A stretch of 64,000 bases of DNA from an uncultured delta proteobacterium (GTDB taxonomy: Bacteria > Desulfobacterota > Binatia > Binatales > Binataceae): assembly GCA_963832395.1 (NCBI GenBank), contig CAWHTV010000003.1, positions 199,323-263,322 of the forward strand, given 5' to 3'. Positions 34,130-55,793 of this stretch are shown piece by piece. The notes below the pieces were generated by a model, which did no database searches, was not told where the DNA came from, and worked only from the letters and a program-made list of their open reading frames with translations. The position numbers were made by a program, and so were the translations under genes. The stretch's first letter is position 1, and each line of letters begins with the position of its first letter.

Positions 34130-35037
34130 TTAAGTGTAGTACTGGATTTTGGCTCCGTCGGCCTCGACGCGCTTGCCGCTCTTCCGCGCGACGACGTGCT
34201 TATAGACATTGCTCACGTTCCATTTGTCCAGCCGGTCGCTCATTTCGAACAGTCTCTGCCCGATCGGGTAGGGATCCAGCTTGCTGACATCGAATTTTTT
34301 GCTCCAAGGCCTCCTTCTCACTCAATCCCCGCTGGACAAAGCCCTCGACCAATCCGATCCAGTTCTCGATGATCTCCGCTTGCCGCCGGAGGTAGCTTTT
34401 GTCGCAGGGTTCTCCGTGTCCCGGAACAATCGTTTCAACGTCGAGCGCTTCGATGCGCTTGAGTGCTCCGAGCCATTCCCACGGGTCAGCTTCCTGGACG
34501 AAGGTCTTGCACTTCTGGAAAACATTGTCGCCGGTGAAAATCACGCCTTCTTCCGGCAAATAGATTGAGGTCTGCGGCGCGGTATGACCGGGCGTGTGAA
34601 TGATCTTTATGGTGTGATTTCCGAGGTGCAGTGTCAGTTCATCCTTGAAAGTGCGCTTGGGCGGGTTGGACGCAGGATAGTCGGGATGGCCTATGAGAAA
34701 GACACTGTCGGGGTCTTCCGTCTTCATCCGTTCCAGACGCACCTCAGGAGTGAACATCATGTTGAGGTACTGATCGAAACAAGCCTGTAGCTTGACTTGA
34801 CCAATAACCTCGACGTCCGGGAAATACGCGTTACCCAGGAGTGTGATCGGCGTGCGGTTCGGTATTAACCAGGTGACGGATTGGTCCCTTCTCCTGCAAC
34901 ATCTCGCGCCATCGTACCGCGTCGATCGGCTGCTGGGGCGAATCGATCATGACCACGCCGTCGCTGGTTTCAACGAAGCCAGGGTTGCAGCCCCAGTAGT
35001 AGACTTCCGCATAGACGTTCTTGCTGACTCTTCTCAT
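34130..35037 (-). pseudogene. MBL-fold metallo-hydrolase, two frame breaks (about 34845 and about 34290)
   Basis: The N-terminal piece reads ...VMIDSPQQP...LVNTEPHADHT (HxHxDH-type motif). The middle piece reads LGNAYFPDVEVIG...IIHTPGHTAPQTSIYLPEEGVIFTGD...IVPGHGEP. The tail piece reads KKFDVSKLDPYPIGQRLFEMSDRL.... The first break is an extra C (ACTCCTGGG vs expected ACTCTGGG). Confidence 0.75.
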
Positions 35038-35275
35038 CGTGATCTCCTTTAGCCGGCCCCACTAGAACGGGATGCCTTGGAATATTGCGCAGTGATGGGT
35101 GGTAGCGCCAGACCCGGCGCAAACGATCGTTAGAGTTGGTGGCGTGCCGGCTTAAGCTCGCGCGCGGATTCAATGTGGCGGCGGTGTATGGCTGCAACCG
35201 CCGTCATCCTCTCAAGCAATTGCCTTTTCACTCGGGACCGGGTCCACATGAGGGTGCGGGTGTTCATGCGGTAAT

Positions 35276-36049
35276 TCAAAGTGCGAGCGGCCATTGCCAA
35301 CACGAAAGAGACCAGCCGCGTCCTTCCACCGCGAGAGCGGAAACGTAGCCTGGGTCAACACTCAACTCCTGTAGAGACCAGCGGCGAATTTCGTCTGGAT
35401 CTGCTTGCGTCCTCAGCAGCGCCGCAGGTTCCCCAGGAATCAGCGACACGTCGAACTGCTCCAAGGGCAGCGAGAGTCCTTCACCTCTCGCCTTGATGTA
35501 GGCTTCCTTGCGAGTCCAACAGAGAAAGAACGCGTGCTTCCGCAGGCTGACCGGAAGCCCCCGAAGCGTCGCAATCTCGCGTTGCGAGAAAAATCGCTCC
35601 GCGAGCTGCTCCACTTCCAGGCTCTCGCGGATAAATTCGAGGTCGATACCGATCTCGCGACCACGAGTAACCGCATAAAGAGCGACTCCGTGGGAATGGG
35701 ACATGTTGAAATGGATCGTGTTCCCGCCCGGGTCCTGGGCAAGGGCGGGCTTCCCGTGAGGGCCGTAACAGAACAACACGGATTTCGCTGCTCTGTTCAG
35801 ATAAACGCCAAGGATCTCTCTGAGCGCGCCGCGCGCGACGATAAAGCGCTCTCGATCAATCTGGAAGTAAAATCGCTCAGCTCTCGCTTGTTCATCTTCT
35901 GAAAGAGTGTGGAACAAGCTATTCATGCGTGATGGATTGTGGTCCAGATCCGCTCGCCAGACGTGTACCTCGTCGTTACTTAGTACTAAGCTTCCTCGCG
36001 GAGAAGGCCACGGAGAAACAGCAAGGGTGTTGGTAAGCGCTATCGTCAC
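35276..36049 (-). CDS. 4'-phosphopantetheinyl transferase, Sfp type
   Basis: 257-aa ORF: ...EVHVWRADLD...LSEDEQARAERFYFQIDRERFIVARGALREIL...FNMSHSHGVALYAV...IGIDLEFI...CWTRKEAYIKARGEGL. These are the classic Sfp/Gsp-type PPTase motifs. It is the last gene of the biosynthetic string. Confidence 0.9.
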   Translation of the reverse strand: MTIALTNTLAVSPWPSPRGSLVLSNDEVHVWRADLDHNPSRMNSLFHTLSEDEQARAERFYFQIDRERFIVARGALREILGVYLNRAAKSVLFCYGPHGKPALAQDPGGNTIHFNMSHSHGVALYAVTRGREIGIDLEFIRESLEVEQLAERFFSQREIATLRGLPVSLRKHAFFLCWTRKEAYIKARGEGLSLPLEQFDVSLIPGEPAALLRTQADPDEIRRWSLQELSVDPGYVSALAVEGRGWSLSCWQWPLAL

Positions 36050-36068
36050 GTGGCCGCTCTCGACAATC

Positions 36069-36830
36069 TCAGTCCAGTTCTTGTGAGATCATCTGAAGAA
36101 GGAGAGGTCGAGCCGTGTTCAGGAACAAATGGTCGCCAGGAAGCATTCGCAACGAGGAGCACGCGGTAGTCTCATCGCGCCAGGCTTCGAGATCGTTGCG
36201 CCTCACTTTGCCATCCTGCAAGCCACCAAAGGTTGAGATGGGGCAGTTCAAAGGAGGCTCAGCCGAGTACTCGTACGTCTCATAGAGGGCGAAATCGGCC
36301 CGCAAGATAGGAAGTACGATCTCCATTAGCTCTTCATGCCCCAACAGCTCCATGGGAATACCGTTGAGGCGACGCACCTCCGCTAAAAATTCCTTTGGCG
36401 GCAAAGTATGGATAGGCGAGTCTCGACGAGGAATCTGAGGCGCACGGCCAGCCGAGATAAACAGGCGAACGGGATTTACACCATACTGTCTGCGGAACTG
36501 GCGCGCGAGCTCGAAGCCAATCAATGCTCCCAAGCTGTGGCCGAAGATAACAAAGGGCTTGTCCAGAAGCGAAGACAGCGCGGGCGCGAGCACTTGGACG
36601 AGCGGCGACATCTCAGTGAAAAGACGCTCCATCAACCTGGTACTCCGTCCGGGAAGTTGAACCGGACAGACCTCGACATCCGCAGGCAAAGCGCTCGACC
36701 ACGTGCGAAATATCGAGGCACTGCCTCCCGCATATGGAAAGCAGAACAAACGCAGACGCGCCTGCGGGCTGGCCTTGCGCCCTGCTATCCAGGAGCTAAC
36801 AGTCGCAGTGTCGGTCGTGGACTGCTTCAT
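36069..36830 (-). CDS. type II (editing) thioesterase
   Basis: 253-aa ORF: RLFCFPYAGGSASIFRTW...PFVIFGHSLGALIGFELAR...MLPGDHLFL. This is the standard TEII pattern (GxSxG = GHSLG, C-terminal GDHFF-like). Confidence 0.9.
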   Translation of the reverse strand: MKQSTTDTATVSSWIAGRKASPQARLRLFCFPYAGGSASIFRTWSSALPADVEVCPVQLPGRSTRLMERLFTEMSPLVQVLAPALSSLLDKPFVIFGHSLGALIGFELARQFRRQYGVNPVRLFISAGRAPQIPRRDSPIHTLPPKEFLAEVRRLNGIPMELLGHEELMEIVLPILRADFALYETYEYSAEPPLNCPISTFGGLQDGKVRRNDLEAWRDETTACSSLRMLPGDHLFLNTARPLLLQMISQELD

Positions 36831-36847
36831 GCGTGAGATCCGTGCGA

Positions 36848-37066
36848 CTATCTTTCCCCCTTCTCCATTTCCTTCCTGAGCGTGAGCGGCCTCATGTCAG
36901 TCCACACTTCTTTGACATAAGCCAGGCATTCCGCCTTCGACCCGCTCTTCCCGCCATCGCTCCACCCAATAGGGTTGCCTCGCTCAGCAGGCCAGATCGA
37001 GTACTGCCCTTCATGATTCACGAGGACCTTGTAGCGCGCATTGCCTTCACTGTCGTCCGTATTCAT
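36848..37066 (-). CDS. MbtH family protein
   Basis: The internal ATG at 37066 gives [63 protein letters not shown], with the invariant N.E.QYS.WP / GW / W.DMRP pattern. Its ATG overlaps the NRPS stop codon (ATGA at 37063-37066). Confidence 0.92.
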
Positions 37067-38112
37067 TGAGCGTCCTTCATCAAGCTGCTTCGTGGATTGA
37101 TTCCGTCGGGCAACCATTCCTCTGCCGACTGTGCGTGGCTGAGGCAGGTCTTCAATTTCTCAGCCAATACTTCAACCTGAGGCCGGTAAACCATGTTAGC
37201 GTGATTGCCCGGGACGGCATGAACTTCCACTCCTCCAGCGGCCCATTTGTCCCACCCAAAGGTCGGGTCGGGAGACGCTCCCGCGGGCTCCTCATTCGCT
37301 CTAAATAGTATGATTCGACCTGGGTAGCGGTGCAGTACGTAGTTACGTGTCGCTCGAAAATCGTTTTTGCAGAGCTCGACAAACCGCTGAGCCTGGGAAA
37401 CCTCGACCTCCGGAGGCACCAAGCCGGCTTTCTTGGCCTGCTCAAGCACACGAGCCAATACTTCGTCCCTTGGAAGTTGCGATATATCCTCAAGGTTCAA
37501 AGAAAGACCGAAATAACGGACCACATCGGTCAACAAGGTCGCCTCAAAATCTTGCTCCACGAACTTCTCTTCAGGAGCCGGGATCCGACTATCCAGTAAG
37601 GCTAGCAAAGCCACTCCATGACCCTGCGCGCGAAGCTGCTGGGCCATCTCGAAGGCTACCGTCCCCCCCATGGACCATCCTCCCAGACGGTACGGACCCT
37701 CAGGCTGCACGGTCCGTAGTACTTCAATGTAGTGAGTAGCCATATCCTCGATACGCATGTACGGATCTTGGCCCTGTTCAAGACCTTTTGCCTGTAGTCC
37801 ATAGCATGGTTGATCGGGGCCCAAATACTGCGCCAGATGAACGTAGGGGAATACCTGGCCGCCAGCCGGATGTATCAGGAAAAGCGGCGGTTTGCTGCCA
37901 TCGGGTTGAATAGCCACCAAGGAGGATACGGGCGCTGGCTCGGCCTGTTGGCGAAGAAGCGTGGCAAGATGTTCAATGGTCGCTCCCTGAAACACGGCCG
38001 CCAACGGAAGTCTTCTACCCAACCTGTTCTCTATCAGGGCGAAAAGACGCACCGCTGCCAGAGAATGTCCTCCAAGCTCAAAAAAATTGTCTCTTACTCC
38101 AATAGATTCCAA
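37063..38112 (-). CDS. NRPS terminal fragment: thiolation (PCP) + thioesterase domains
   Basis: The ORF piece has the T-domain core [16 protein letters not shown] and a TE domain ([22 protein letters not shown], ...VPGNHANM). It continues in another frame from the upstream A-domain piece. Confidence 0.9.
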
Positions 38113-39897
38113 GACCCAGAACCTCCCTCCACAGATGAGTGAGCTGGAGTTCCAAAGCGTCTCGGGGCGCCACCAGCACTTTTTCCAACTCAGGCCTCGT
38201 TCGACCAGCCGCTGGCAGCGCGCGGCGATCCACCTTCCCGTTGAGCATCAGCGGCAGCGCGTCCAACAGCACGTACGCCGAAGGAACCATATACTCCGGC
38301 AGCTTCTGTTTCAGAAAGCCGCGCAGGTCATTAGCCGTGGGAAGGAGGTCCCGCTCGGCGACCACGTAAGCCACCAGCCGCTTTTCTCCAGGAGCGTCTT
38401 CCTGAGCCAGAACGACAGCGTCCCGAACGCCTGGGTGCTGGCCAAGCGTTGCCTCGATTTCCCCGAGCTCGATACGGAATCCGCGGATCTTGACTTGGTG
38501 GTCAACCCGGCCCAGAAATTCGATGTTCCCGTCAGGTAGATAACGAGCCAAGTCGCCGGTCTTGTACAGTCGTGCTCCCGGCTCGATGCTGAAGGGGTTT
38601 GGAATAAACTTCTCAGCGGTCAAATCGGGGCGATTCAGATAGCCCCGGGCCAGACACGCTCCGCCGATGTGCAGTTCACCGGGAACTCCAACAGGAACAG
38701 GGTTGCCGTACTTGGTCGAGAATGTATGTCTCTCTGTTGGCGAGGGGCCGGCCAATAGGAATTCTCTGAAAAGTCGCTCTCTCGAAGAGTCGAGGATCAA
38801 TTTCGAAGGCAGTTGCCGTTATAGTGGCCTCCGTCGGGCCATAGGCATTGAGTAGACGGATTGAATTCGCCGGTGTTCGCTGCCAGAGTTTGAGAACGTC
38901 GGGCAACAGGATGTCTCCGCCAACGGTAAACAGTCTGGCCTGAATGTTCGACGCCAGCTCGGGAAACTCCGCCCACTCTCGAGCCAGCTCTTGCCAGTAA
39001 CCGGTTGGAAGATTGAGTACCGTCAGTCCAAATTCCGAGATCTTTCTATGAAATTCCGCCGTATGCCATACGTCCGTGCCCATCATAACCAGCCGGGCTC
39101 CAACGATCAGAGTAGGCAGGATTTGCTCCAATGATAGATCGAAACTCAATGAAGCAAACTGGAGCACCCGATCACTCGGATCCAATTCGTAGTACCTTTG
39201 AATATCTCGGCAGTGAGCCGCAAGCGACGCGTGCGAAACGAGAACACCCTTTGGCTGTCCCGTGGATCCCGAGGTATAGATTACGTAAGCCAGATTTTCA
39301 GGTCTGGTTGAACTAATCGGGTTGCGCTCGCTTTCTCGGTCAATCGCCTCCCGCTCTGAATCCAGACAGACTATTGTCGCATCACATTCCGGCAGCGCCG
39401 CGAGCAAACGCTCCCGCGTCAATATCACCGGCGCTCGGGCCGTTTCCAGCATGAAAGCGAGGCGCTCTTTCGGATACGCTGGGTCCAGGGGCAGATACAC
39501 TCCGCCTGCCTTCAAAATGCCCAGCAACCCGACAATCATATCCGCCGAGGGCTCCAGGCAGATTCCGACCGGTATCTCCGGGCCCACTCCCAAAGCCTGC
39601 AAATGATGCGCAATTCGATTGGAGCGGCGGTTCAGTTCCGCATATGTCAATTGCTCATGCTTCAAAGACGACCGCTATAGCGTCAGGCGTTCGTTCGACC
39701 TGCGCCTCGAAAAGCTGCTGAATACACAGATCCTTCGGATAATCGATCTTGGTGTCGTTCCACTCGACAAGCAGTTGTTGTCGCTCTGCTTCGCTCAGGA
39801 TGGGCAGTTCCGACAGCCGCTCCTCAGGATTAGCGACCACAGCCTCAAGCAAGGTTCCGAAATGCCCGAGCATACGAGTCAATCGTGGCATCCTCAA
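38078..39897 (-). pseudogene. NRPS adenylation domain of the last module (in at least 3 frame pieces)
   Basis: The pieces are 39655-39897 (C-A linker, LFEAQVERTPDAIAVVFE), 38676-39665 (LTYAELNRRSN, YTSGSTGQPKGV, FDLSLEQ, NAYGPTE) and 38078-38800 ([49 protein letters not shown]). All core motifs A1-A10 are present. Confidence 0.88.
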
Positions 39898-41301
39898 ACA
39901 GGTCCTTGTTGTAGGCGAAGGTTGCGAGTCAGTCCTTGCTCGGTATCCGCGATATGCAGAGTCAAATCAAAGTGGGCGGTCCCGCTGTCGATCTCCACCG
40001 GACTTAGAGTCAAGCCTGGCAGCCCGATCGTTTGCAGCGACGCATTCTGCAACACGAACATCACCTGAAATAGCGGATTGCGTCCCAGATTCCGCTCCAG
40101 ATGTAATTCCTCCACCAGTCTCTCAAAAGGCAGGTCCTGATGCGCATACGCTCCCAGGCACACTTCCCGCACGCGCCGCGAAAGCTCCCGGAAAGTAGGA
40201 TTACCTGAAAGGTCAGTGCGCATAACCAGCGTGTTAACGAAGAATCCAATCAGTCCCTCGATCTCCAGCCGGTTGCGATTAGCAATCGGAGTGCCGACGA
40301 TGAGGTCGTCTTGATCCGTGTAGCGATGCAACAATATCTTGAACGCCGCCAGCAATGTCATGAACAGAGTAATCCCCTCCTGCCGGCTCAAGCGCCCTTA
40401 AACCTTCGCCGACCTTCCTCGGCAACAGCAACGATTGGATGTGAGCCCCGAAAAGTCTGCACGGCCGGCCTGGGATGGTCCGTCGGCAACTCCAACGGAG
40501 AGGCGCCGAGTAATTGCCGCTTCCAATAGGTAAGCTGGGTCTCCAGGACTTCACCCTGCAGCCACTGCCGCTGCCAATGCGCAAAGTCCGCATATTGGAT
40601 AGGCAGGTCAGGCAGCGGCGAGGATCTTCCGCCGGAGAAGGCTTCGTAGAGTACGGCCATCTCCCGGATCAGTATTCCGGTCGACCAGCCATCGGAAACG
40701 ATATGATGCATCGTCAGCAGCCCTACATGCTCCTCCTCTGCCCAGCCGCAAGCAGAGTGACCCGCAAAAGCGGGCCCCGGGCCAAGTTGAACGGCCTTTG
40801 GGCCTCCTCAATAGCCAGCCGTCGGACCTCGGCCTCCCGTCTCGCTTTCAGGCAGTTCCTGCAGATTCACTATCGGCGGTCTGACGGTCAGCGTTGGCGC
40901 GATAATTTGAGCCGGCCGCCCGTCCACTATCGTAAAGGTCGTCCGCAGGGATTCATGGCGCTTGACGATTTCGTTGATACTCTGTTCCAGCGCCGCCACG
41001 TTGAGCGGGCCCTTCAGGCGGACCGCGGCGGGAAAATTATAGGCGGAGTTGCCCGGCTCCAACTGATCGATGAACCATAGCCGCTGCTGGGCAAAGGAAA
41101 GGGGCAAATCTCCGTCTCGTGGAATAGGCAATATGGGCGGAGCCTGCAGCCTCTGCCCGGTCTCGCCGGGCTGCCTCGATACTTTCAGCCAGGCCCGCCA
41201 CGGTAGGCATCTCAAACAGACGCCGCAGCGGTATCTCCACCGCAAAGGCCTCGCGCATTCGAGACACAGCCTGAGTCGCCAGCAGCGAGTGTCCACCTAA
41301 C

Positions 41302-43054
<1,753 letters not shown>

Positions 43055-43059
43055 TCTCC

Positions 43060-44340
43060 AGCAACGTCTGAAACTGTGCGGCCAGGCGCTCGATATCTTC
43101 CATGTGGAACACGTTGCAGTCGTAATGAAGCTCGATGCTCAGCAGGTCCGCTTTTGAACACAGGACAACTTCAACGTGAACCGTTCGGTACAAGCGTGTC
43201 GCCTCTGAATCGCAAATGTCACATCGCCCGCGGAATACCGCACGGGCTGTTCGTCACAATTCGAAAATAACCGGGAAGAAGGGCGCACCGTCGCCAGTGG
43301 CATTCGAGCCGGCAACTGAATCCCAACTGAAAGTACTCCTGCCAATCGAGCGATTCCCGCGATCGACTCATTGACCTGCTTTAAAAGCTCACTGAAGTGA
43401 AGCTGTTCTTCCAGATGACACTGAAGCGGCACGGATTGCGCCAACAGTCCGGGTGTCTCTCTTAAGCTCATCGTACGTACGGCCATCGCCACAGATCGCG
43501 ACGAGGAAGTGCGATTGACTGGTGAGACGCCAGAGCAAATTTGCCAGCACGTCAACAAGATATACAGAAATTGACGTATCGTAGTTTCGAACCGCCGCTT
43601 TGAGTGCCATCGTCAGGTCGGTCTCGAGCTCAAACCTGAAAAATCGCGGATCGAACCCCGGCGTTGTCGGAACGGTGATTCTCAAAAGGGGAGAGTCAGA
43701 CGCGGGTACCGCCGAAAGATTTTGCTTGCCGCCAATAGTCTCTTCCTGCACTTTGTATCCTCCGACTCCAATAGTTCATTATCCATTGCGCGACATCGGC
43801 GTACTGCAGCGACGGAGCCGCTAGTGTTTCACCAACCAGGCAGGCTGAATAGCAACGGCTTAATTCGCGGACAAAAATCGTAAGGGTCGCCGTATCCGCA
43901 TAAAGAGCGCGATAGGGTAACAAACAACATGTGCTTGTCTGCCGACAGAGCGGCCAGCGACACATGCGCGGGCGGGCTCTTGTCCCGGTCAAAAGGCGCT
44001 TCGCTGGCAGCTTGCAAAAGCGATTCGAGTGCGGCCGTCGTTCGCGAGAGCTCCAGCCTACGCAGGTCGTGGCTGCTCGATGATGCGTCCGCTTCCGACG
44101 GTATCATCGCTTTCGGCATACAACCTGAACCGGGTGGTCGTTCCGGGCAGGCAAGCAATCGTGGTGCGAAAAATCTCATGTCGGGCGAAGACGCCTCGCA
44201 AAGCGGCTTCGAGCAGCTTATGTCAACAGGTCCTTCGATAAGAACCGCGCATTGAGCAAGATAAGGTGCGGCGTGGTCCGTCTGCTGCACCGACCACAGA
44301 TGCAATTGCTGAGGTGAAAGTCGAAACCCCTCAGATCATC
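43060..44340 (-). pseudogene. second, divergent condensation-family domain lacking the HHxxxDG histidines (many frame pieces)
   Basis: It begins FRLSPQQLHLWSVQQTDHAAPYLAQCAVLIEGPVD, then LEAALRGVFARHEIFRTT (alternate frame), ...APFDRDKSPPAHVSLAALSADKHMLFVTL, then (P)IALYADTATLTIFVRELSRCY at the place of the HHxxxDG motif (43894-43920). It continues SLQYADVAQW...YW, FELETDLTMALKAAVRNYDTSISVYLVDVLANLLWRLT, ...DGRTYDEL. The C-domain fold order is preserved. Confidence 0.7.
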
Positions 44341-44559
44341 GGGCTCGGGAGTTCGCACTTATCAATTGCCTGCTCAGTGTTTGAGCCGAGAAGAGGCTCC
44401 GTTGAAATGAGATGGGGCCGATCGCCCGGTGGACTGGGCATTCCATACCCGTCGCGCCATCACTACCCAGTTTGGATACGCTAATCGCCACCCGTCTCGC
44501 GAGTCTTCAGTCTTTGGAGGTTGGTCTCTCTATACTGTTGCCGGACGCCACCGTCGTTG

Positions 44560-45678
44560 CCTATCTATCCCGGCAAGTATGTCCCTTAGTGCATTCAACC
44601 TGGCATCGGGTTGTGTAGTGATATGGTGCAGAAGCGTTTCGAAGTGTCTTGCGATTCGCGCGATGGTAGCGGCATCGAACAGATCGCTGTTGTAGCGCAT
44701 GGAAATAGAAAGCGAGCGGGCCGTCTCAATATCAACATCACCAGATCGAGAGTGGCCGCCCGATGTTCCAAGGGCAAAGCTTCCAGCTCGAGTCCTCCTG
44801 GATTCATACGCAGTCCGCGCTCGCCCAGCGCGAACGCGGTGCTCCCTGTTCAGCTAGCTGATGCGGTTTATCCAGCACGAACATGACCTGGCACAGTGGC
44901 GGTCGGCTGAGATCCCGGGCCGGATGGAGTCGTTCGACCAGCAGTAGAGTTGGGTAGTCCTGATGCTCGAGCGCGGCCAGCACGGTTTGGCGCACCTGGC
45001 CTAGAAACGCCTCGAAGGCCGGGTTTCCGGAACAATCCGCTCTCAAGATGACGGGATTGGTGAAGAGGCCGACGACGCCTTCGAACTCGGCCCGACTCCG
45101 GCCGAGCACGGGAGAGCCCACCAGGATGATCCTCCTGACCAGTGTGGTGATGCAGTATCACTTGAAATGCGGCCAGGAGAACCATGTACAAGGTCGCGCC
45201 CTGGACCTTCGCGAGAGCTTTCAGCCGCAAGCTCAGTTCATCGTTCAAATTGAAATCGTACGAGGCGCCGCGATATGTCGGCACCGGCGGTCGCGGCCGA
45301 TCGGTCGGAAGCTCCAGCAAAGGCAAGTGTCCAGCCAATTGCTTCTGCCAGTAGGCCCAAAGCCGATCACCTTCGGGGCCCGCCAGCATTTCGGCCTGCC
45401 ATCGAACATAGTCGGTGTATTGCGAACCGAGCGCGGGCAGCAGCGCGGGTACGCCGGCCTTTTCCGCCGGATATAGCGCGCCGAGTTCACGTGAGAAGCA
45501 GCGCGAGGGACCAGAAATCGATCACGATATGATGTACTACCAGCAGCAGAACGTGTTCCTTTGCCGAGCAGGTGAACAGGTTCACCCGCAGTACAGGCCC
45601 TCGTTCCAAATCAAAGGGCCGATAGGCTTCCTCGAGCAGCCGGGTTTTCAGAATCTCGCTCGTCCCAGCCCGACGCAT
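44560..45678 (-). pseudogene. condensation domain following the PKS ACP (core and C-terminal half; at least 5 frame pieces)
   Basis: RPFDLERGPVLRVNLFTCSAKEHVLLLVVHHIVIDFWSL carries the catalytic motif at about 45508-45534. It is followed by YWQKQLAGHLPLLELPTDRPRP...YRGASYDF, LKALAKVQGATLYMVLLAAFQVILHHHTGQED, GSPVLGRSRAEFEGVVGLFTNPVILRAD, and ...ARIARHFETLLHHITTQPDARLNAL. Confidence 0.8.
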
Positions 45679-45684
45679 CGGTCT

Positions 45685-46368
45685 CTACGAAGTGGACGGC
45701 CGTAACTGCTGATGGACCCGTTGAGCGGGCTTGCCGGAGCGCACGGAAAAAGTGGTCCGCAGTGCAGGATGGCGATCGACCAGCGCCTGAAACGCGCGCC
45801 GCAAGGCCGGAATATCCACGTCGGAGCGGATGCGCGCGGCGAAGTTGACATTGTAGACCATGCTCTCCGGGGCGAGCTGGTACAGAAACCATATCCCTTG
45901 CTGATTGTAAGACAGCGGCTGAAACGATTGAGACGTCGGCGTCTTCTGACGCCTCTTTCCGAAGGAGCTGTGGCAAGCAGAGCGCGCTTTTCTCCTGGCG
46001 AAAGATCGGCGATTCTTTGGGAGGCGCTGCATCAGGATTCCACTAATTTCCGCTTTGTCCAACATATCGGCGAGCAGTGAATCCACTTCCTCATCCGAAA
46101 GCCGATCGAGTTTTGCCAACAGCTCTCCATTCGCCGCGCCGTTGCTGTACTCCTGCTGGCGTTGCGCGACCGTCGGGGCAGGTGGCGCCGATGACGCGGA
46201 AAGCTCCGCGGTCAATTGATCAAGGATCTGCGTGGCAGCCTGGGCAACGCTCGGTCCCTGGAGAAATTTGACCATCGGCACGTTCACGCCCAAGTCAACC
46301 GCGATCCGGTTCTTCAGCTCGACCGCCATCAGGGAATCCAGTCCGAGATTGCTGAGCGGCTGCTCCAC
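45685..46368 (-). CDS. PKS acyl carrier domain + N-terminal start of the condensation domain (ORF fragment)
   Basis: The ACP core is LSNLGLDSLMAVELKNRI. A long Ala/Pro/Gln linker follows, then the C-domain start QPLSYNQQGIWFLYQLAPESMVYNVNFAARIRSDVDIPALRRAFQALVDRHPALRTTF. Confidence 0.85.
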   Translation of the reverse strand: MEQPLSNLGLDSLMAVELKNRIAVDLGVNVPMVKFLQGPSVAQAATQILDQLTAELSASSAPPAPTVAQRQQEYSNGAANGELLAKLDRLSDEEVDSLLADMLDKAEISGILMQRLPKNRRSFARRKARSACHSSFGKRRQKTPTSQSFQPLSYNQQGIWFLYQLAPESMVYNVNFAARIRSDVDIPALRRAFQALVDRHPALRTTFSVRSGKPAQRVHQQLRPSTS

Positions 46369-46415
46369 GTCCAGCCTGGAAGCGGAAAGTCCGAGTACGC
46401 GGGCTACTTGTTCGC

Positions 46416-47546
46416 TCAGGTAGGAACGCAGCAGTTGAGAGCGCGCCGCGGGTTCCGCGGCAAAAGAGTTTCCCTCTTCTCTCCCGCATGGGCCGCCTGC
46501 GGTTGGACCTCGACCTCCTCATTAGCAAGTTGAGAGAGCAACGGCGATTCACTACCCACTGAGTAAAACTGGCGATACTGCCTCCAGTCGACGGGCACCG
46601 CCGCGACCTGGGCTGCGTCCTGCCGGAGCATCCGTTCCAGCACTTCCAGCGCCTGCCTGGGCGCCATACTCCTGATTCCCACTAGCGCGAGATGTGCTGC
46701 GAGACGCTTGCCCCCGGCCGTTTGCGCAAAGCCCAACTCGGCCCAGGCACCCCAGTTGACGCTCAGGGCCGGCCGGCCTTGGGCTTTTCGGTGATGCGCC
46801 AGGGCATCGAGGAAGGCATTGGCGGCGGCATAGTTTGCCTGGCCGGGCTGGCCCAGGAGCGAGCCCGCGGAAGAAAAGAGTACGAAGAAATCCAGCGGAG
46901 CGTGTTCGAGCAAGCGATGCAACAGCCAACCACCCATCACCTTGGGCCGCAATACGGTATTCAGCGCGGCCTGATCAAGCTGCGAGAGCAGTCCGTCCCG
47001 CAGTACTCCGGCCGCGTGCACTACGCCACGGATCGGCGGCCAACCCTCGGCGCTAAACTCTTCGAGAAAGGCGCTCAACTGTGCTTCATCTGCCACGTCC
47101 ACCGAGGCCAGATGCACGCTCGCGCCCAAGGCTTCCAGCTCTCGAATGGCACCGACTTGATGGGCCAAGCGGCTTCCCGCCTCTGCCGCGCTCCAACCCG
47201 ATCGCGGCGGGAGCTTCGTGCGTCCCAAAAGGATCAACCGCCGAGCGCCCTGCTCGACCATCCAACGGGCGACCGCGAGACCGAGGTCCCCGAGTCCTCC
47301 AGTAATCAGATAACTGCCGTCCGTCGGCCACGCGAGCGGAGGGCGTTGCGCCACGGACTGGCGTTTGCGTACCAGGCGCCCCACGTATCGCCGCCCCTGA
47401 CGAAACGCGATCTGATCCTCTCCATCGGGGTTGGAGATTTCCTCCCACAACCGACTAGCAACGGCGTCAGGCGGCGAGGCCCCGGGCTCCAGGTCGATCA
47501 GGCCTCCCCACGATGCGGCGTGCTCCTGCGCAATAACGCGACCCAT
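46416..47546 (-). CDS. PKS ketoreductase domain (ORF fragment)
   Basis: The Rossmann motif is YLITGGLGDLGLAVARWMVEQGARRLILLGR. The fragment also has SVDVAD...VVHAAGVLRDGLL (LxD of B-type KRs) and FFVLFSSAGSLLGQPGQANYAAANAFLDALA (catalytic S/Y/N region). Confidence 0.88.
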   Translation of the reverse strand: MGRVIAQEHAASWGGLIDLEPGASPPDAVASRLWEEISNPDGEDQIAFRQGRRYVGRLVRKRQSVAQRPPLAWPTDGSYLITGGLGDLGLAVARWMVEQGARRLILLGRTKLPPRSGWSAAEAGSRLAHQVGAIRELEALGASVHLASVDVADEAQLSAFLEEFSAEGWPPIRGVVHAAGVLRDGLLSQLDQAALNTVLRPKVMGGWLLHRLLEHAPLDFFVLFSSAGSLLGQPGQANYAAANAFLDALAHHRKAQGRPALSVNWGAWAELGFAQTAGGKRLAAHLALVGIRSMAPRQALEVLERMLRQDAAQVAAVPVDWRQYRQFYSVGSESPLLSQLANEEVEVQPQAAHAGEKRETLLPRNPRRALNCCVPT

Positions 47547-47639
47547 CCCCCAAAGAGGCGCCTGCGCTACATCAAGAGGTAGAGGGCTCTTCGCCCGCCG
47601 CCTGAGCCCCTCGGGTTACCAGCCATAGGCGCGGGAGCA

Positions 47640-48501
47640 TCACGCAGGTCGGCGTCGCGAGCCAGATCCTGTCGAGTCAGTTCCTGTCGGGCCAGTTCCT
47701 GAACCAACGGCAGCACGGCGCCGCAGCCCAGACTCTGGGCCTTCGATAGCGAAGCCGCGGTGGGTATCCCGCGGCGTAGAAGGATCAAGACAATCGAGAC
47801 TCCAGAGATGGACAATCCGCCGGCAGGCCGCCCGATTGGCCGGCATCGCCGCCTCGAAAAGCAGTCGGAGGTCTTCCGGCCTTTCTGGACGAATACGAAA
47901 ATGCCTACTGTCCGCGACCTCGTACGATTCGCCCCGAGCGACAAGGATGCTTTCCGCGCCTTGCGCTTCCAACAGTGCCGCCAGCGCTTCTCCTACGCCG
48001 CCGCGGTCGGCAAAGATAAGCCAGCTCTCTCTATCGGCTCGCGCGGAATGCTCCGCGGCTACTGGTTCATCAGCGCGTGGTTTGAGCTGCCACTGAAACT
48101 CATATAGCCAGTCGTTTATATTTTCTTTCCGTATATTTCCTTCCCGACTCGTTTCGACCGCGCGGTGCGCATGGCTGCCCAGGGATTCGAAGCGCAGTCC
48201 CGACAATCTCGACTACCGCTTGCCCGGCTTCATCCAGCAGCCGTACATCTCCTTTGACCGCATTGGCGTCTCGCTCTTGCAGATGGGCGTAACTCCATAG
48301 ATGCGGTTCCGGACAGCCGTGGACCCGGACCTCATCTATGTGCGTCGGCATGAAGATGTTCTGTTTGCCGTTTCCCGTTACCTCAGTCGCGACAGCGGCT
48401 CCAGCAACCTGCAGGCAGGCATCCAGGACCGCTGGATGAATCTGATAGGTACTGCATTCACCTTCAGGACATTGAGGAACACCGTATTTCACCGAGCACA
48501 T
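47640..48501 (-). pseudogene. PKS dehydratase C-terminal half + structural (pseudo-KR) linker, two ORF pieces
   Basis: 48100-48501 reads ...YQIHPAVLDACLQVAG... (the DH DxxxQ motif), then ...DVRLLDEAGQAVVEIVG. 47640-48206 reads WLYEFQWQLKPR...SWLIFADRGGVGEALAALLEAQGAESILV...RIVHLWSLD (KR structural subdomain). Confidence 0.8.
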
Positions 48502-51500
48502 CTCCGTCGTGCCACCACAACTGAGTAATGCTCTGGAGGAAGGAGCCGTAATGGATACCGTTTTCGCTCAGTCTCGCGTAATAGTCCTGTCCAGAGATCT
48601 TTTCCAGACATCGAGCCTGGATCTCCGCGAGCGTCTCCTGCCCTGCCGCAAAGACGCTGCCGTCTTCTTGGGAAGAAACTCCGCCCGTCGCATGCAGCGT
48701 CCATGATTTAGCGGGTTGGCCGATTCCCGCAGGGCAACTGTAGATTTGAAAAGCCGCCGCTCCATCCGTTCCGGAAGAGAGGATCAACTGAAGCAGGCGG
48801 GTTTCGTCGTCGGGCAAGAAAAGCGCCCGGTGAAATTCGATATCCTTCAGCACGAAGGATTGTGCCAGTGCGAAGGATTGTGCGCCGAAGGCCTCCGCCG
48901 CGGCCGCCAAGGCCATCTCCACGTAGGCCGAGGCGGGCAGCACCGCAACTCCTTCAATACGATGGTCATTCAGATAACGGCAGCGCGCGCTTGTCGAGCG
49001 TGACTTCCCAGAAGATGGGTTTCCGCAGGATGTGCCGATTTGAAATGCCGGCCCAGCAGCGGATGGTGCTCTTTCGTGCTGCGCGCTTTCCCCGAGCGCA
49101 TCCCCGCGCGTATCCGATAGATAGTCGGTTTCATCTGCCGCACTGTCCATCCAGCAGCGCTCTCGCCGCCAGGGATGCGACGGAAGCCGGACGCAGCGGC
49201 CTCCGGCCGGGTAAACAAGACTCCAGTCCACTGGGTATCCCAGGGTATAAAGCGCGCCGAGGGATCCAAGCATCACCGTGCGTTCTTCTTCATCACGCCG
49301 CATCGACGCCACCACCGCGCCTTCATGGCCGAGGTGATGAAGTCCCTGCTGGATGCCACTTAGAAGAATGGGATGCGGACTGATTTCAAGAAAAATGTCA
49401 TGTCCATCTTCCAGCAAGCGTTGAACCGCCGGTGAAAACAGCACCGGCTCTCTGAGGTTTCTCGCCCAATAGCGCGCTTCGAACTCGAGCCCACCGCTGA
49501 CCATACCGGTCACGGTCGAGTAAATGGGTATCGATGCGGGTCGCGGCTCCAGACCTTCCAGGGCCTGCAACAAATCCGCGCGTAGGGGATCCATCTGCGG
49601 GCTGTGCGAAGCGAAATCCACTTTCACCATGCCGCAGAAGATGTCTCGACGCCGCAATTGATCGAGGATTGTTTCCAGCGCCGCCGGATCTCCCGACAAC
49701 ACGGTGGAGGTGGGACTGTTGCTGGCCGCGATCGATACGCGATCTTCGTAGCCGGAGCCGGCGAGAACGCCGCGCGCCTGTTCCATGGAAAGCTCGACCG
49801 CGGCCATCGCGCCCTGTCCGACTGCGCGCCTGACCAGGCGGCTGCGATGACAAATAACCCGCGCCGCATCTTCGAGGCTCAGCGCACCGGCGACGTGCGC
49901 CGCCGCGACTTCGCCCATGCTGTGGCCGACCACGGCCTGTGGCTCGATACCCCAGGAACGCCACAAGGCCGCCAGGGCGACCTGAATCGCAAACAGGGCC
50001 GGCTGAACGATATCGACTTCGTTCAGCCGGGACTGAGCCGCATCGGTTGCCGTGAGCTCGCCGAGCAAAGACCAATCTCCGTACCGCCGCATCGCCCGGT
50101 CACAGCGTTCCACGACCTCGCGAAAAACCGGTTCCTGCTCCAGGAGGCTTCGCCCCATGCCAAACCATTGGGATCCTTGTCCCGGAAACACGAACACAAG
50201 TTTTCTTTGACGACCTGAATCCTTGCGGCCGAAAGACAGTCCGGGACGGGCCTCTCCGTGCAAAAACGCCTGGAGCCCTTCACTCAGTTGCTCGCGTGAA
50301 TAGCCTGTCACGGCGAGACGGTAGTCGTGATGATCACGCCGCATACCGGCCGTGTAACAAATGTCGTTTAGCGACAGTTCGGATTCCGGGGACGCCAGGA
50401 AATCCTGGTACGCTCGAGCAAGAGACTGGAGTGCCTCGGGGCTGCGCGCCGAAAGTGGCAGCAAGTGCGCGGACTTGGTATTGCGAATTTCGGCATGTGG
50501 ACTATCTATTGCGCATTCCGCACTCTGGATCCATGAATTGGACTGGGGGGCCTCTTCGAGAACCACATGAGCATTGGTTCCGCCAAAACCGAATGAGCTC
50601 ACCCCGGCCAGAGCGGGGCCCGACTCGACCGGCCATGGACCGAGCGTCGTCTGCACCCGCAGCGGGAGCCGATCGAAAGGAATGTGCGGATTGGGCTCCA
50701 CGAAGTGCAGGTTCGGCGGGATCTCGCGATGCTTGAGCGCGAGCGCCACCTTGATCAAGCCTGCAATGCCGGCTGCGGCCTCGAGATGGCCGATATTGGT
50801 CTTGACCGCGCCCAGGGCGCACGGTCTTCCCGGGGGACGGTCGAGGCCAAGCACCGCGCCCAGCGCCTTCACCTCGATCGGGTCGCCGAGCAAGGTGCCA
50901 GTGCCATGGGCTTCGACATATTGAACCCCGCCGGGCGAAACTCCAGCGCGCCGATAGGCTTCTCGCAGAACGGCTTCCTGGGCCAGCGGATTGGGAGCCA
51001 TCAGGCCGTTGCTGCGTCCGTCCTGATTCACCGCGCTGCCTCGCACGACGGCGTAAATCGGATCGGCGTCGGCCAAGGCTCTGGATAGCGGTTTCAGCAC
51101 GACGACACCGGCGCCTTCGCTGCGAACGTAGCCGTTGGCTCGGGCATCGAAGGCCTTGCAGCGGCCGTCGGGAGCCATGACCCCGGCCTTGGTAAAATTG
51201 ATGGTAATCGCGGGCGACAGGATCAGATTCACGCCGCCGGCAAGAGCGAGACTGGACTCTCCGTTCCAAAGACTGCGGCAGGCCAGATGAACCGCGACGA
51301 GTGACGAGGAACAGGCGGTGTCGATAGCCATGCTCGGCCCGCGAAAATCAAACAGGTAGGAAATACGATTGGCCGCGATACTCAGTGCGTTGCCGGTGCC
51401 CGCGTAGGCATCGATACGATGCGGATCGCCGAACTGAATCCGGCCATAGTCATTGTTCGAGATGCCGATGAATACACCGGCCCGGGTGCCGGCCAGACGC

Positions 51501-52240
51501 TCCGCCACCTGTCCAGCGTCTTGCAATGCTTCCCACGCCACCTCCAGCAACAGACGTTGCTGAGGATCCATACGCGCCGCTTCACGAGGAGAGATGCCGA
51601 AAAAATGAGGATCGAACCGATCGATCTGCTTGAGGAAGCCGCCCCAGCGGGTGTTCGTCTTGCCCGGAGCCGCGGGGTCCGGATCGTAAAAAGCGTCAAG
51701 CTTGAAGCGCTCCGCCGGAACCTCTGTGATCGCGTCCACTCCGTCCCGCAGCAGTTGCCAGAACGCTTGTGGATCATTGGCTCCGGGAAACCGGCAGCCG
51801 AGGCCGATGATCGCGATCGGCTCGCTGGTTGCTTCCCGCCCGCGGTCAGCCACGGCGCCCGACTGCGTGCCGCCGGAGTCCGAGGCATCCGCTGACCCCG
51901 CCAAATAACGGGCGAGCGTCTCGATGGTGGGGTACTCATAGGGGAGCGCGGGAGAAATTTGTCGCCCAAGCCGATCCGCCAGTTCGCCGGAAAGACCGAC
52001 CATCTCGCTTGAGCCGAGGCCATAACTGGCGAAGGGCTCGCGGACATCGATCTCGCGAGGCTCAAGCCCCAGCAACTCGGACAGCCGGGAGACCAACCAG
52101 GTTTGGATGACTTCAGCGGTCAGAGAATCCGTTGATGAGTTTGGCTGGTCGCGTTTGTCTCGATCGTCGAAACTCCGTTCGACAGAGCCTCGTTCGACAG
52201 AACTTGGCGACGCGCCGTTGGTTGAATTCTCCGACATCAC
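48464..52240 (-). CDS. type I polyketide synthase: N-terminal carrier domain-KS-AT-DH (N-half); longest open piece of the megasynthase
   Basis: 1258-aa ORF. The carrier domain is FASYGLGSSEMVGL. The KS motifs are IDTACSSSLVAVHLA, YVEAHGTGTLLGDP and KTNIGHLEAAAGIAG. The AT motifs are VVGHSMGEVAAAHVAG and VKVDFASHSPQM. The DH motif is YLNDHRIEGVAVLPAS (HxxxGxxxxP). Around 48990-49080 the expected HPLLG segment is only readable in an alternate frame (HHPLLGRHFKSAHPAETH), so even this ORF hides a compensated double shift. Confidence 0.92.
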   Translation of the reverse strand: MMSENSTNGASPSSVERGSVERSFDDRDKRDQPNSSTDSLTAEVIQTWLVSRLSELLGLEPREIDVREPFASYGLGSSEMVGLSGELADRLGRQISPALPYEYPTIETLARYLAGSADASDSGGTQSGAVADRGREATSEPIAIIGLGCRFPGANDPQAFWQLLRDGVDAITEVPAERFKLDAFYDPDPAAPGKTNTRWGGFLKQIDRFDPHFFGISPREAARMDPQQRLLLEVAWEALQDAGQVAERLAGTRAGVFIGISNNDYGRIQFGDPHRIDAYAGTGNALSIAANRISYLFDFRGPSMAIDTACSSSLVAVHLACRSLWNGESSLALAGGVNLILSPAITINFTKAGVMAPDGRCKAFDARANGYVRSEGAGVVVLKPLSRALADADPIYAVVRGSAVNQDGRSNGLMAPNPLAQEAVLREAYRRAGVSPGGVQYVEAHGTGTLLGDPIEVKALGAVLGLDRPPGRPCALGAVKTNIGHLEAAAGIAGLIKVALALKHREIPPNLHFVEPNPHIPFDRLPLRVQTTLGPWPVESGPALAGVSSFGFGGTNAHVVLEEAPQSNSWIQSAECAIDSPHAEIRNTKSAHLLPLSARSPEALQSLARAYQDFLASPESELSLNDICYTAGMRRDHHDYRLAVTGYSREQLSEGLQAFLHGEARPGLSFGRKDSGRQRKLVFVFPGQGSQWFGMGRSLLEQEPVFREVVERCDRAMRRYGDWSLLGELTATDAAQSRLNEVDIVQPALFAIQVALAALWRSWGIEPQAVVGHSMGEVAAAHVAGALSLEDAARVICHRSRLVRRAVGQGAMAAVELSMEQARGVLAGSGYEDRVSIAASNSPTSTVLSGDPAALETILDQLRRRDIFCGMVKVDFASHSPQMDPLRADLLQALEGLEPRPASIPIYSTVTGMVSGGLEFEARYWARNLREPVLFSPAVQRLLEDGHDIFLEISPHPILLSGIQQGLHHLGHEGAVVASMRRDEEERTVMLGSLGALYTLGYPVDWSLVYPAGGRCVRLPSHPWRRERCWMDSAADETDYLSDTRGDALGESAQHERAPSAAGPAFQIGTSCGNPSSGKSRSTSARCRYLNDHRIEGVAVLPASAYVEMALAAAAEAFGAQSFALAQSFVLKDIEFHRALFLPDDETRLLQLILSSGTDGAAAFQIYSCPAGIGQPAKSWTLHATGGVSSQEDGSVFAAGQETLAEIQARCLEKISGQDYYARLSENGIHYGSFLQSITQLWWHDGDVLGEIRCSSMS

Positions 52241-52247
52241 GCACTTC

Positions 52248-54038
52248 TTACAGACTGGCGAGAGTGCCGTTCAGGAAGCTGACCTGGCACGCATTGCGCT
52301 GAACCTTGCCGCTTGGAGTCTTCGGCAGGCTCCCGGCCCTGAGCAGTACCGCCGCGTGCACCCGCACGTCGTGCTCTTCCGCCACCGCTCGCCGAATGGC
52401 TCGTACCATCGCCCCGACGTCCAGCAACAGCCGCGGAGGCGAGTGCGGGGGCCGATTGCGATCGTGGCTATCCGCCGGCCGGTAGCGGCGCTCAACCTCG
52501 GCTGCGACGATCAAACGTTCTTCGTGGGCGACGTCGACCGAAAACGCCGCGCAACAGCCCGACCGTATTGCGGGATGGCTTTGTTCCACCGTCAACTCGA
52601 TGTCGTTGGGGTAAAGGTTGCGGCCCCCGATGATGATCAGATCTTTCAGCCGGCCGGTGACAAACAATTCGCCATCTTTCAGAAATCCCAAATCTCCGGT
52701 GCGCAGAAATGGCCCTTCTCCGCTGTCCGCGAGGTAGGCTCGCAACGTGCGCTCTGTCTCCTCGGGGCGGTTCCAATAACCTCGCGAAACGGTCGGGCCT
52801 GATACCCAGATTTCGCCCACCGCCTCCGGTGCGCAACGAGTCAACGATTCGGGATGAACGATGACAATCCTGGTACCGGGCATCGCGTGGCCACATCCAA
52901 CCAGGGTCCGCACATTCTGTTGCTGGTCGGGAGCCTCCGCGACGCGATTCTGTTCAAGCGCCGCCGCCTGAGCCGCATACAAGGTAGGCTCATCTTTCAA
53001 AGGACCGCCTGACACCATGAGAGTGGCTTCGGCGAGTCCATAGCAGGGATACAGGAAGCGTGGGCGGAACCCGTATTTTGCAAAGGCCGCGGCAAACCGT
53101 TTCAGAGTGTCCGCCCGGACTGGCTCTGCGCCATTGTACGCCGCATACCAACCGCTGAGGTCGAGATTTTCGCACTGTTCGGGAGTAATTTTGCGGGCGC
53201 ACAGCTCGTAGGCGAAATTGGGACCTCCACTGACGGTGCCGTTGTATCGCGAAATTGCCTGAAGCCAACGCACCGGCCGCTGAAGGAAGGATTGTGGCGG
53301 CAAGATGAAACATGGACGTCCAACATAGGTCGGTTGAACGATTCCATTAGTAAGTCCCATATCATGAAAGACCGGCAGCCATGACACTGATACCCCACTG
53401 TCCGGAGTGAGCTCGAACGCGTGATTGACGTTGGCCGAATTATGCAGAAGGTTCCCGTGACTGACCATCACACCCCGGGGTACGGTGGTTGAGCCTGAGG
53501 TGTATTGGAGCAAGGCCAGACTGTTGCTGGTCACGACAGGATTTTGCCATCCCGGCGCCAGCCCGCCGGTGAGCTTGTCGGTGGCCACCCAGCGCATCGT
53601 CGCCAGTTCTTGAGCCTGCGTGAACAGGGCCTCAACCTTCGACAGGATCGATGACGTGGTGAGCGCCACCGACGGCTGAGCATCGTTCGCGATGGCTCGT
53701 AACCTGGGGAAAGTCCGCTGTTGCTGAGCCGCAGTCGGCGGGGGCACCGGGACGGCAATCACGCCGGCATACAGGCAACCGAAAAAGGCCGCGATGAATT
53801 CGAGACCGGTTGGATAGATCAGCAGCGCCCGCTGCCCACTTGCGCAGTAAGTCTGGAGCAGCGCCGCAATAGTCCGGGCCTCGCGGTCCAACTCCGCATA
53901 GGTCAGACGGCCTCCCTCTACCTCTCCATCGAGCAAATAGGCGTAGGCCAGCTGCTCAGGCTGACGAAGCGCTCGCCAGCGAAGGACCTCAACCAGCGTG
54001 GAAAAACTAACCGTTTCATCGGTAGAAGCTCTATTCAT
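52248..54038 (-). CDS. fatty acyl-AMP ligase (FAAL)
   Basis: 596-aa intact ORF with the typical FAAL N-terminus (TLVEVLRWRALRQPEQLAYAYLLDGEVEGGRLTYAELDREARTIAALL). Adenylate-forming motifs are LQYTSGSTTVPRGVMVSH, YGLAE, GEIWVSGPTVSRGYW, RTGDLGF and PKTPSGKVQR. Its stop is 7 nt before the PKS carrier-domain start. Confidence 0.9.
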   Translation of the reverse strand: MNRASTDETVSFSTLVEVLRWRALRQPEQLAYAYLLDGEVEGGRLTYAELDREARTIAALLQTYCASGQRALLIYPTGLEFIAAFFGCLYAGVIAVPVPPPTAAQQQRTFPRLRAIANDAQPSVALTTSSILSKVEALFTQAQELATMRWVATDKLTGGLAPGWQNPVVTSNSLALLQYTSGSTTVPRGVMVSHGNLLHNSANVNHAFELTPDSGVSVSWLPVFHDMGLTNGIVQPTYVGRPCFILPPQSFLQRPVRWLQAISRYNGTVSGGPNFAYELCARKITPEQCENLDLSGWYAAYNGAEPVRADTLKRFAAAFAKYGFRPRFLYPCYGLAEATLMVSGGPLKDEPTLYAAQAAALEQNRVAEAPDQQQNVRTLVGCGHAMPGTRIVIVHPESLTRCAPEAVGEIWVSGPTVSRGYWNRPEETERTLRAYLADSGEGPFLRTGDLGFLKDGELFVTGRLKDLIIIGGRNLYPNDIELTVEQSHPAIRSGCCAAFSVDVAHEERLIVAAEVERRYRPADSHDRNRPPHSPPRLLLDVGAMVRAIRRAVAEEHDVRVHAAVLLRAGSLPKTPSGKVQRNACQVSFLNGTLASL

Positions 54039-55791: not shown

Positions 55792-55793
55792 TG

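Follow-up and report, generated by a model that had tools for sequence, protein, structure and literature searches.

Hybrid assembly lines of polyketide synthases (PKSs) and non-ribosomal peptide synthetases (NRPSs) that are primed by a fatty acyl-AMP ligase (FAAL) form a well-known class, with the mycosubtilin/iturin, microginin and puwainaphycin types as familiar members. In these lines, the FAAL loads a carrier domain, one PKS extension follows, NRPS modules add amino acids and a thioesterase (TE) ends the line, with MbtH-like proteins, type II thioesterases (TEII) and 4'-phosphopantetheinyl transferases (PPTases) as accessories. The same plan is found in a cluster of seven genes and about 19 kb at 35276-54038 of a 64,000-nt stretch of DNA from an uncultured delta proteobacterium of the Binataceae; this whole stretch is called the window here. 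The region is likely to be a functional-type hybrid line for a small N-acylated dipeptide that has been recorded in an error-laden long-read assembly. An earlier note on this DNA had recognised its domain string as that of no characterised pathway, and no characterised match was found in the literature searched; nor did that literature, covering biosynthetic gene clusters of Binatia, FAAL clusters in Acidobacteria and cross-phylum NRPS transfer, hold anything on this cluster family. As far as the literature searched goes, the cluster is a member of a well-known class without a characterised counterpart of its own.

The cluster was compared with related loci (numbered L001 onward), among them those from a scan of one genome per GTDB species, in which 420 loci were found and the best 80 were examined in detail. 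All cluster genes lie on the minus strand, and both in the window and in close intact relatives the order is FAAL, PKS, a free-standing condensation protein (Cs), NRPS, MbtH, TEII and PPTase. The FAAL gene (52248-54038, 596 aa, intact) encodes the Pfam AMP-binding domain and a DIP2-like C-terminal domain. It is followed by a type I PKS module (46032-52240, about 2061 aa after frame repair), for which Pfam and motifs give the order acyl carrier protein (ACP), ketosynthase (KS), acyltransferase (AT), dehydratase (DH), ketoreductase (KR) and a second ACP. The frame-broken Cs gene (44374-46039, about 549-554 aa) corresponds to a separate 549-aa gene in L001, L002, L083, L085 and L090. The bimodular NRPS gene (37063-44339) has condensation (C), adenylation (A) and carrier (T) domains in the order C0*-A1-T1-C2-A2-T2-TE; it is heavily frame-broken down to 38109 and, once repaired, encodes 2417 aa co-linear with the intact 2418-aa product of L002. 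The remaining genes encode a 72-aa MbtH-like protein (36848-37066; Pfam MbtH, E 5e-21), a TEII of the editing type (36069-36830, 253 aa, intact; Pfam Thioesterase, E 5e-48) and an Sfp/HetI-type PPTase (35276-36049, 257 aa, intact; Pfam ACPS and AASDHPPT_N), the last of which matches the NCBIfam HetI model at E 3e-74, below that model's cut-off. Spacers are 7 nt between the FAAL stop and the PKS start, 17 nt between MbtH and TEII and 19 nt between TEII and PPTase. The ATG of MbtH overlaps the NRPS stop as ATGA, and the same overlap is present for the 72-aa MbtH gene in L002, L083 and L085. TEII and PPTase are syntenic in most loci.

The product of 52248-54038 matched the NCBIfam FAAL models (PRK05850, FadD32, FadD21/28) at E values from 1e-106 to 1e-139, all below the curated cut-offs, whereas CoA-ligase models matched at 1e-30 to 1e-48, except for one long-chain CoA-ligase model at 1e-101. 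It is accordingly predicted, at class level only, to be a FAAL rather than an acyl-CoA ligase. An identical FAAL protein is encoded on four JGI contigs, which are about 94.6-96.5% identical in DNA.

From its start at 52240, the PKS reading frame stays unbroken as far as about 49100, below which 1-nt indels occur. The repaired translation contains no internal stop and is 94% identical to the intact 2063-aa protein P0001; in close relatives the PKS is about 2050 aa long. Its N-terminal carrier (PP-binding, residues 48-113) lies directly downstream of the FAAL, with a complete PKS module behind it. The KS motifs DTACSSS, EAHGTGT and NIGHLE are encoded at 51322-51302, 50914-50894 and 50797-50780, the AT motif GHSMGE at 49927-49910, the DH motif LDACLQ at 48426-48409 and the motif LGLDSL of the C-terminal ACP at 46347-46330. 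The KR carries LRD, which is of the B type, and YAAAN. In the DH, the histidine motif is HPLLGRHFKS; its tenth residue is S, and this form is conserved across the cluster family. At the PKS/Cs junction (45930-46040), extra bases (4, 1, 1, 2, 7 and 1 nt) remove the PKS stop codon. These bases look like a genuine in-frame insertion at the N-terminus of Cs in part and a 1-nt error for the rest, the former because Cs variants of 552-554 aa exist (e.g. P0160 and P0129).

The active-site motif of Cs, HHIVIDFWS, is encoded at 45534-45514. It recurs as HHIV[IV]DFWS, with minor variants at the bracketed positions, in all of the 80 loci except the frame-broken L009, and at least 2311 homologues of Cs were found. 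At the N-terminus of the NRPS, the domain C0* is by sequence a diverged C domain that reads ALYADTAT (about 43908-43885) where HHxxxDG is expected, so that the competent C motif at the PKS-NRPS junction is found in Cs and is absent from the first C domain of the NRPS itself. Every split-type locus has [SP][SA][LF]CAD at this position, with both histidines lost and the aspartate kept. C0* is still under purifying selection, with a dN/dS of 0.29-0.30, compared with 0.14-0.15 for Cs and 0.06-0.23 for the other NRPS domains. About half of the loci carry the Cs orthologue as a fused domain ahead of A1-T1, the canonical donor/acceptor position. Further along the NRPS, the C2 motif HHIVSDGWS (40708-40688), two T-domain motifs FFELGGHSL (41309-41283 and 38085-38059) and the TE motif GWSMGG (37680-37663) are present. 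All A-T and TE motifs are accounted for in an NRPS that is of full length after repair, although the window sequence as recorded has about 80 frame breaks.

Most of what the earlier note had read from the letters and a list of open reading frames is borne out by this analysis. Its gene coordinates and spacers, including the position of the FAAL, stand, and all of its domain classes were confirmed by Pfam (AMP-binding, PP-binding, KS, AT, DH, KR, Condensation, Thioesterase, MbtH and ACPS), among them those of the cluster's own MbtH, type II thioesterase and Sfp-type PPTase. Its single reducing and dehydrating ketide module after the FAAL is supported by domain order and motifs. Every motif that it quoted was located in the window, with the correction that the DH motif, given with a final P, ends in S. 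The short spacers of its uninterrupted minus-strand string are as described, but from 38109 to 49100 about 80 frame-shifting indels break up the coding sequence. The condensation, A, T and TE domains described behind the PKS are present but belong to two genes, as the separate Cs had been missed. Where at least two amino acids had been proposed, the FAAL-PKS-NRPS line with its TE holds exactly two A-T modules, yet three C domains.

The domain order suggests a fatty acid as the starter, adenylated by the FAAL and passed to the N-terminal ACP of the PKS. The KS and AT would then add one C2 or C3 unit, and the B-type KR together with the DH would leave the C-terminal ACP loaded with a 2,3-unsaturated acyl chain; in both steps the motifs are in place and the chemistry is predicted from them. 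Cs would join this chain to the first amino acid on T1. This role as first condensation enzyme is suggested because other loci carry the Cs orthologue fused in exactly that position. The histidine-less C0* would serve as a non-catalytic scaffold or docking domain, C2 would add the second amino acid and the TE would release the acyl-dipeptide. The MbtH-like protein is expected to assist the A domains, the TEII to clear mis-primed carriers and the PPTase to activate the four carrier domains, roles that are established for these families.

The A-domain codes were extracted by alignment to GrsA-PheA (1AMU) and read DARHMGVIDK for A1 and DLENTGAITK for A2. The A1 code is found in 44 loci, and about 15 loci have the alternative DMKN[FL]GIANK; across loci, A2 reads D[LV]EN[ITV]GAITK or DLEDLGAITK. 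Because these codes are nearly invariant, the product would be conserved across phyla. At position 239, A1 has an arginine (lysine in the alternative A1 code) and A2 a glutamate, pocket residues that weakly suggest an acidic substrate for A1 and a basic one for A2. The Stachelhaus codes for Glu(1), DAWHFGGVDK, and Orn(1), DMENLGLINK, agree with A1 and A2, respectively, at 6 of 10 positions. No match to the exact codes, with or without the final K, was found in the literature searched. A PDB search with the A1 pocket segment was also tried as a route to the substrate and was set aside; it returned only Ser-/Gly-type scaffolds (FscH, EntF and LgrA) and a weak PvdL match, none of them assignable. 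In L048, from an Acidobacteriota metagenome-assembled genome (MAG), the A domains at 11960 and 15169 share the same framework and have the codes DLTKVGEVGK and DVWHISLVDK (Asn/Asp-like and Ser-like), which suggests module or subdomain exchange within the cluster family.

The frame breaks bear directly on whether such a line is functional. Alignment with L002 gives 80 frame-shifting indels in the window from 38109 to 49100, and their density is highest, at 17-19 per kb, around 43-45 kb. Seventy-two of them are single-base changes (55 insertions and 17 deletions), and an identical neighbouring base is present at only 25%. The same indels are seen against L001 and L088, indicating that they are specific to the window. 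The earlier note had left room for a dead relic and had pointed to frame repair and a search for an intact syntenic copy as ways forward. After repair, the PKS, Cs and NRPS read full length and are co-linear with intact orthologues, and the only internal stop, in the NRPS, adjoins an indel. Intact syntenic clusters exist at DNA identities of 96.5% (L001, L088 and L089), 94.6% (L090) and 89% (L002). With intact orthologues at hand and frame breaks that behave like assembly errors, the dead-relic alternative does not hold up. No near-identical intact copy spanning the frame breaks was found: a 2.9-kb Logan contig of run ERR11594406 (ERR11594406_2375022, L087) corresponds to 35157-38057 at 99.8% identity, with 6 SNPs and no gaps, and ends 52 nt before the first break at 38109, and the 554-aa Cs proteins that were checked as near-identical intact copies are not close.

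The substitutions tell the same story. Changes at third positions and synonymous changes prevail in the broken stretch just as in the intact one. In a three-way test of the window against L001, with L002 as the outgroup, over 1745 codons, window-specific changes were 21 non-synonymous to 34 synonymous and L001-specific changes 34 to 53 (Fisher p = 1), with 0 nonsense substitutions. Substitutions were fewer on the window lineage than on the L001 lineage; with neither an excess of substitutions nor a non-synonymous shift, relaxed selection on the window lineage finds no support. Moreover, the disruptions are neither limited to cluster genes nor independent of sequencing technology. An amidase gene unrelated to the cluster (27546-28778, minus strand) is split into at least three frames, with Pfam positions 33-201 and 348-444 on different open reading frames, and two FtsX permease genes contain nine 1-nt insertions at 55238-56894. 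Frame switches in PKS/NRPS genes occurred in 20 of 43 loci from the Nanopore-only Microflora Danica (MFD) MAGs, compared with 0 of 35 short-read loci. The MFD assemblies were made from Nanopore data only, with one round of Medaka polishing against indel errors (PMC12313526). A profile of the longest open reading frames filtered by GC3, which had been meant to chart frame breaks over the whole window, was discarded, being confounded by the lower G+C content of the second half. Strong but indirect evidence, namely a purifying substitution pattern, unrelated broken genes and breaks that track sequencing technology, thus argues for long-read assembly artefacts rather than gene decay, and the cluster is very probably intact in the organism. 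In general, broken frames in the megasynthase genes of a long-read MAG call for a check of substitution patterns or reads before the genes are taken for pseudogenes.

Thousands of orphan NRPS and PKS clusters exist, and one more is unremarkable in itself. What is noteworthy here is the spread over 420 loci at 63-88% identity, the near-invariant substrate codes and a linked set of transporter genes. The best 80 loci are mainly from Binatia/Binataceae, many labelled 'uncultured delta proteobacterium', and further hosts belong to the Acidobacteriota (Terriglobia, Acidiferrales and Edaphobacter), Verrucomicrobiota and Alphaproteobacteria. Homologues of the PKS number in the hundreds at 70-94% identity. 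By sequence, the cluster family appears to have spread horizontally, since protein identities remain at 63-88% across four phyla; several of these loci lie on Mb-sized contigs, which also makes mis-binning unlikely. The G+C content had been proposed as a sign of horizontal origin. It is indeed lower in the cluster (0.590) than in the first 15 kb (0.619), but the values of 0.599 at 15-35 kb and 0.561 at 58.8-64 kb show that this 3-point difference is small and not specific to the cluster, and the argument was rejected. Conservation of this kind suggests that the metabolite has a general role, ecological or in the envelope, in acidic soils and peat, and the small size of the cluster makes heterologous expression realistic.

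Three layouts have been observed among the loci. The first, as in the window, has a split Cs together with C0*; in the second, the Cs orthologue is fused as the first NRPS domain and C0* is absent; in the third, the fused NRPS has no FAAL-PKS nearby. In the one locus of the third layout that was examined, L070 from an alphaproteobacterial MAG, a free-standing FabF-like KS (8646-9854) directly precedes the fused Cs-NRPS, and methylmalonyl-CoA mutase genes are located just upstream. Two further loci, L008 and L028, belong to one Binatia-type MAG (CAWDMI010000002.1, 514584-563431), in which 27 kb separates two Cs copies and holds a further NRPS set; the arrangement looks like an expanded version of the cluster.

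The functional unit, as judged from gene neighbourhoods, reaches past 54038 into a conserved transporter block, which is also on the minus strand. In the window, this block comprises two frame-broken FtsX/MacB_PCD permease genes of the LolC/LolE type (54494-57059; identified by Pfam and by alignment to the intact 420-aa and 407-430-aa genes of L001, L083 and L088), an intact 253-aa LolA-like periplasmic carrier protein (57056-57817; Pfam LolA_like, E 5e-46) and a membrane protein with LPG_synthase_TM, the transmembrane region of MprF flippases (57861-58844; PF03706, E 1e-13). At 54428/54429, about 2.07 kb is absent, and the alignments to L001, L088, L089 and L090 all break there. The missing stretch carries a LolD-like ABC ATPase gene and a gene for a conserved 325-aa signal-peptide protein without a Pfam match, neither of which was found in the window by tblastn. 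The gap could be a real deletion in this strain or an assembly collapse.

In L001, L083, L086, L088 and L089, the block stands next to the biosynthetic genes together with the ABC ATPase and a 254-325-aa protein without a Pfam match, either upstream of the FAAL or convergent with the PPTase. The complete Lol-like set of two permeases, ATPase and LolA-fold protein is present in L083, L086 and L088, where the LPG_synthase_TM gene also has the same position. The LolA-like protein has 873 homologues and adjoins the cluster in L083, L086, L088 and L076. An ABC ATPase (75-88% identity) and an FtsX permease occur by the PPTase or upstream of the FAAL in Binatia, Acidobacteriota, Verrucomicrobiota and Alphaproteobacteria. 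Since this linkage is conserved, the block probably serves to export the product or to insert it into the cell envelope. A LolA-like protein that is 89% identical to that of the window (P0260) is encoded on a 119-kb contig labelled Candidatus Dormiibacterota, which may represent a further phylum with the block or a binning error.

It is possible, though on present evidence doubtful, that the product is not a secreted antibiotic but a charged lipodipeptide with the function of an envelope lipid, made by a module that is passed horizontally between bacteria of acid soil and peat in at least four phyla. The MprF-type protein would then flip the lipodipeptide, made in the cytoplasm, across the inner membrane, and the LolCDE-like ABC complex would extract it and hand it to the LolA-like carrier for the outer membrane. 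The whole module would in that case be an adaptive envelope trait.

Other genes near the cluster recur to a varying degree. Two overlapping open reading frames at 62023-63601 (minus strand) encode Crp/Fnr-type regulators (Pfam cNMP_binding and HTH_Crp_2), and homologues are found beside the cluster in L085, L086, L015, L034, L026 and L029, making the pair candidate regulators of the cluster. A BON-domain gene (59823-60236) and a SnoaL-like gene (60920-61420) recur in L088. On the other side, two genes at 32897-35197 also look frame-broken: one for an M24 peptidase, whose profile is truncated at 140 of 208, and one for an MBL-fold protein, with profile positions 92-196 only. An MBL-fold gene follows the PPTase in L003 as well.

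Several points weigh against a functional line hidden by assembly errors. The route and the predicted product are read from sequence. The AT motifs EVDIVQ, GHSMGE and DFASH lean to the methylmalonyl signature but are ambiguous, and malonyl and methylmalonyl extension are not clearly told apart. The substrate assignment is weak, as it leans on Stachelhaus codes with their 6/10 matches and found confirmation in no database or paper. The indels are insertion-biased and not linked to homopolymers, unlike the classic Nanopore pattern, and they are patchy along the sequence. In addition, the ABC ATPase and its conserved neighbour gene are missing in the window and present in four related strains; if the deletion at 54428/54429 is real, export would be impaired in this strain, which leaves some room for real decay. 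Taken further, this would mean that the PKS, Cs, NRPS and permease genes are truly frameshifted and the ATPase truly lost, so that the strain carries a pseudogene relic. The atypical indel profile, the roughly 80 indels in the cluster with nine more in the adjacent permease genes and the missing 2.07 kb are what such a relic would leave behind; the ratio of 21:34 against 34:53 and the lack of nonsense changes in 1745 codons are not. In the tested stretch, 44 frame-shifting indels stand against 55 lineage-specific substituted codons, a ratio far from the one usual in bacterial pseudogenes. Insertions outnumber deletions by about 3:1, and bacterial mutation is generally deletion-biased. With unrelated genes of the window broken as well and breaks that follow sequencing technology across 78 loci, a relic is very unlikely.

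Two other explanations concern the chemistry of an intact cluster. If Cs acted like PapA5 or VibH, its acceptor for the PKS-made acyl chain would be a free alcohol or amine, and the dipeptide from the NRPS would be a second, unlinked product. Such a division of labour would suit a Cs that is encoded on its own both in the window and in roughly half of the loci, an NRPS that retains its own N-terminal C-like domain and a gene order reminiscent of FadD-Pks-PapA, familiar from mycobacterial lipid loci. It is highly improbable, however, given that the orthologue is covalently fused before A1-T1 in the other half of the loci and that no split-type locus has a C0* with either catalytic histidine, which would leave the NRPS unable to start without Cs. 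The PDB sequences closest to Cs are elongation C domains of NRPSs (Txo2, 6.6e-82; TycC, 6e-67), and no PapA5 or VibH chain was returned at E <= 1e-5; a PapA-type acyltransferase was rejected on the grounds that the matches (Txo1/2 and TycC) are ordinary elongation C domains. Alternatively, the product could be a metallophore of the lipopeptide kind (an amphiphilic siderophore) and leave the cell through a MacB-type pump, as pyoverdine does through PvdRT. The MbtH-like protein, the predicted charged residues and the MacB/FtsX-type ABC exporter would fit this, and the PvdL-type model PRK05691 is the best NCBIfam model for the FAAL, Cs and NRPS. Its scores (580, 352 and 1829 bits) nevertheless lie far under the cut-off of 4090, and the A1 pocket is not close to that of PvdL. 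Two unmodified residues would offer few metal ligands, and no hydroxylase, N-monooxygenase, catechol/hydroxamate tailoring gene or TonB-dependent receptor was found beside the cluster in the window, L083-L086 or L088. A metallophore is therefore quite unlikely, and an N-acylated dipeptide whose acyl chain is joined by Cs is the preferred product.

Set beside known systems, the transporter block resembles LolCDE-LolA and MacB-type exporters in its two FtsX/MacB_PCD permeases, its ABC ATPase (in relatives) and its LolA-fold protein. It differs in being a paralogous set that is tied to a secondary-metabolite cluster and has an MprF-type transmembrane protein attached, and its ATPase gene is absent from this window. 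The mycobacterial FadD-Pks-PapA systems (PDIM, sulfolipid and glycopeptidolipid) also have a FAAL that loads the N-terminal ACP of a reducing PKS, with a free-standing protein of the condensation fold next to it, and the FadD32/21/28 and Pks2/Pks13 models are among the top NCBIfam matches of the FAAL and PKS, all below cut-offs. Cs, however, is not PapA-like by sequence, and the acceptor is here most likely an amino acid bound to the NRPS. With PvdL, the pyoverdine precursor synthetase (PDB 9lco and 9up2), the cluster shares the order of an acyl-adenylating starter, carrier, C, A (acidic), T, C, A and T, as well as an acylated peptide that leaves via a MacB-type exporter. The cluster falls outside the PvdL type (PRK05691), as the FAAL is a separate gene and a full PKS module intervenes; it has two modules where PvdL has three, its match to PvdL in the A1 pocket region reaches only 25 bits and chromophore or siderophore genes are absent. 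Compared with the mycosubtilin/iturin-like lines, the cluster has no aminotransferase, so that the chain would be joined via its thioester carbonyl to give an N-acyl product instead of a beta-amino acid. Only two amino acids would be added, the first condensation would fall to a free-standing C protein, with a histidine-less C domain alongside, and the hosts are uncultured Binatia and other soil phyla.

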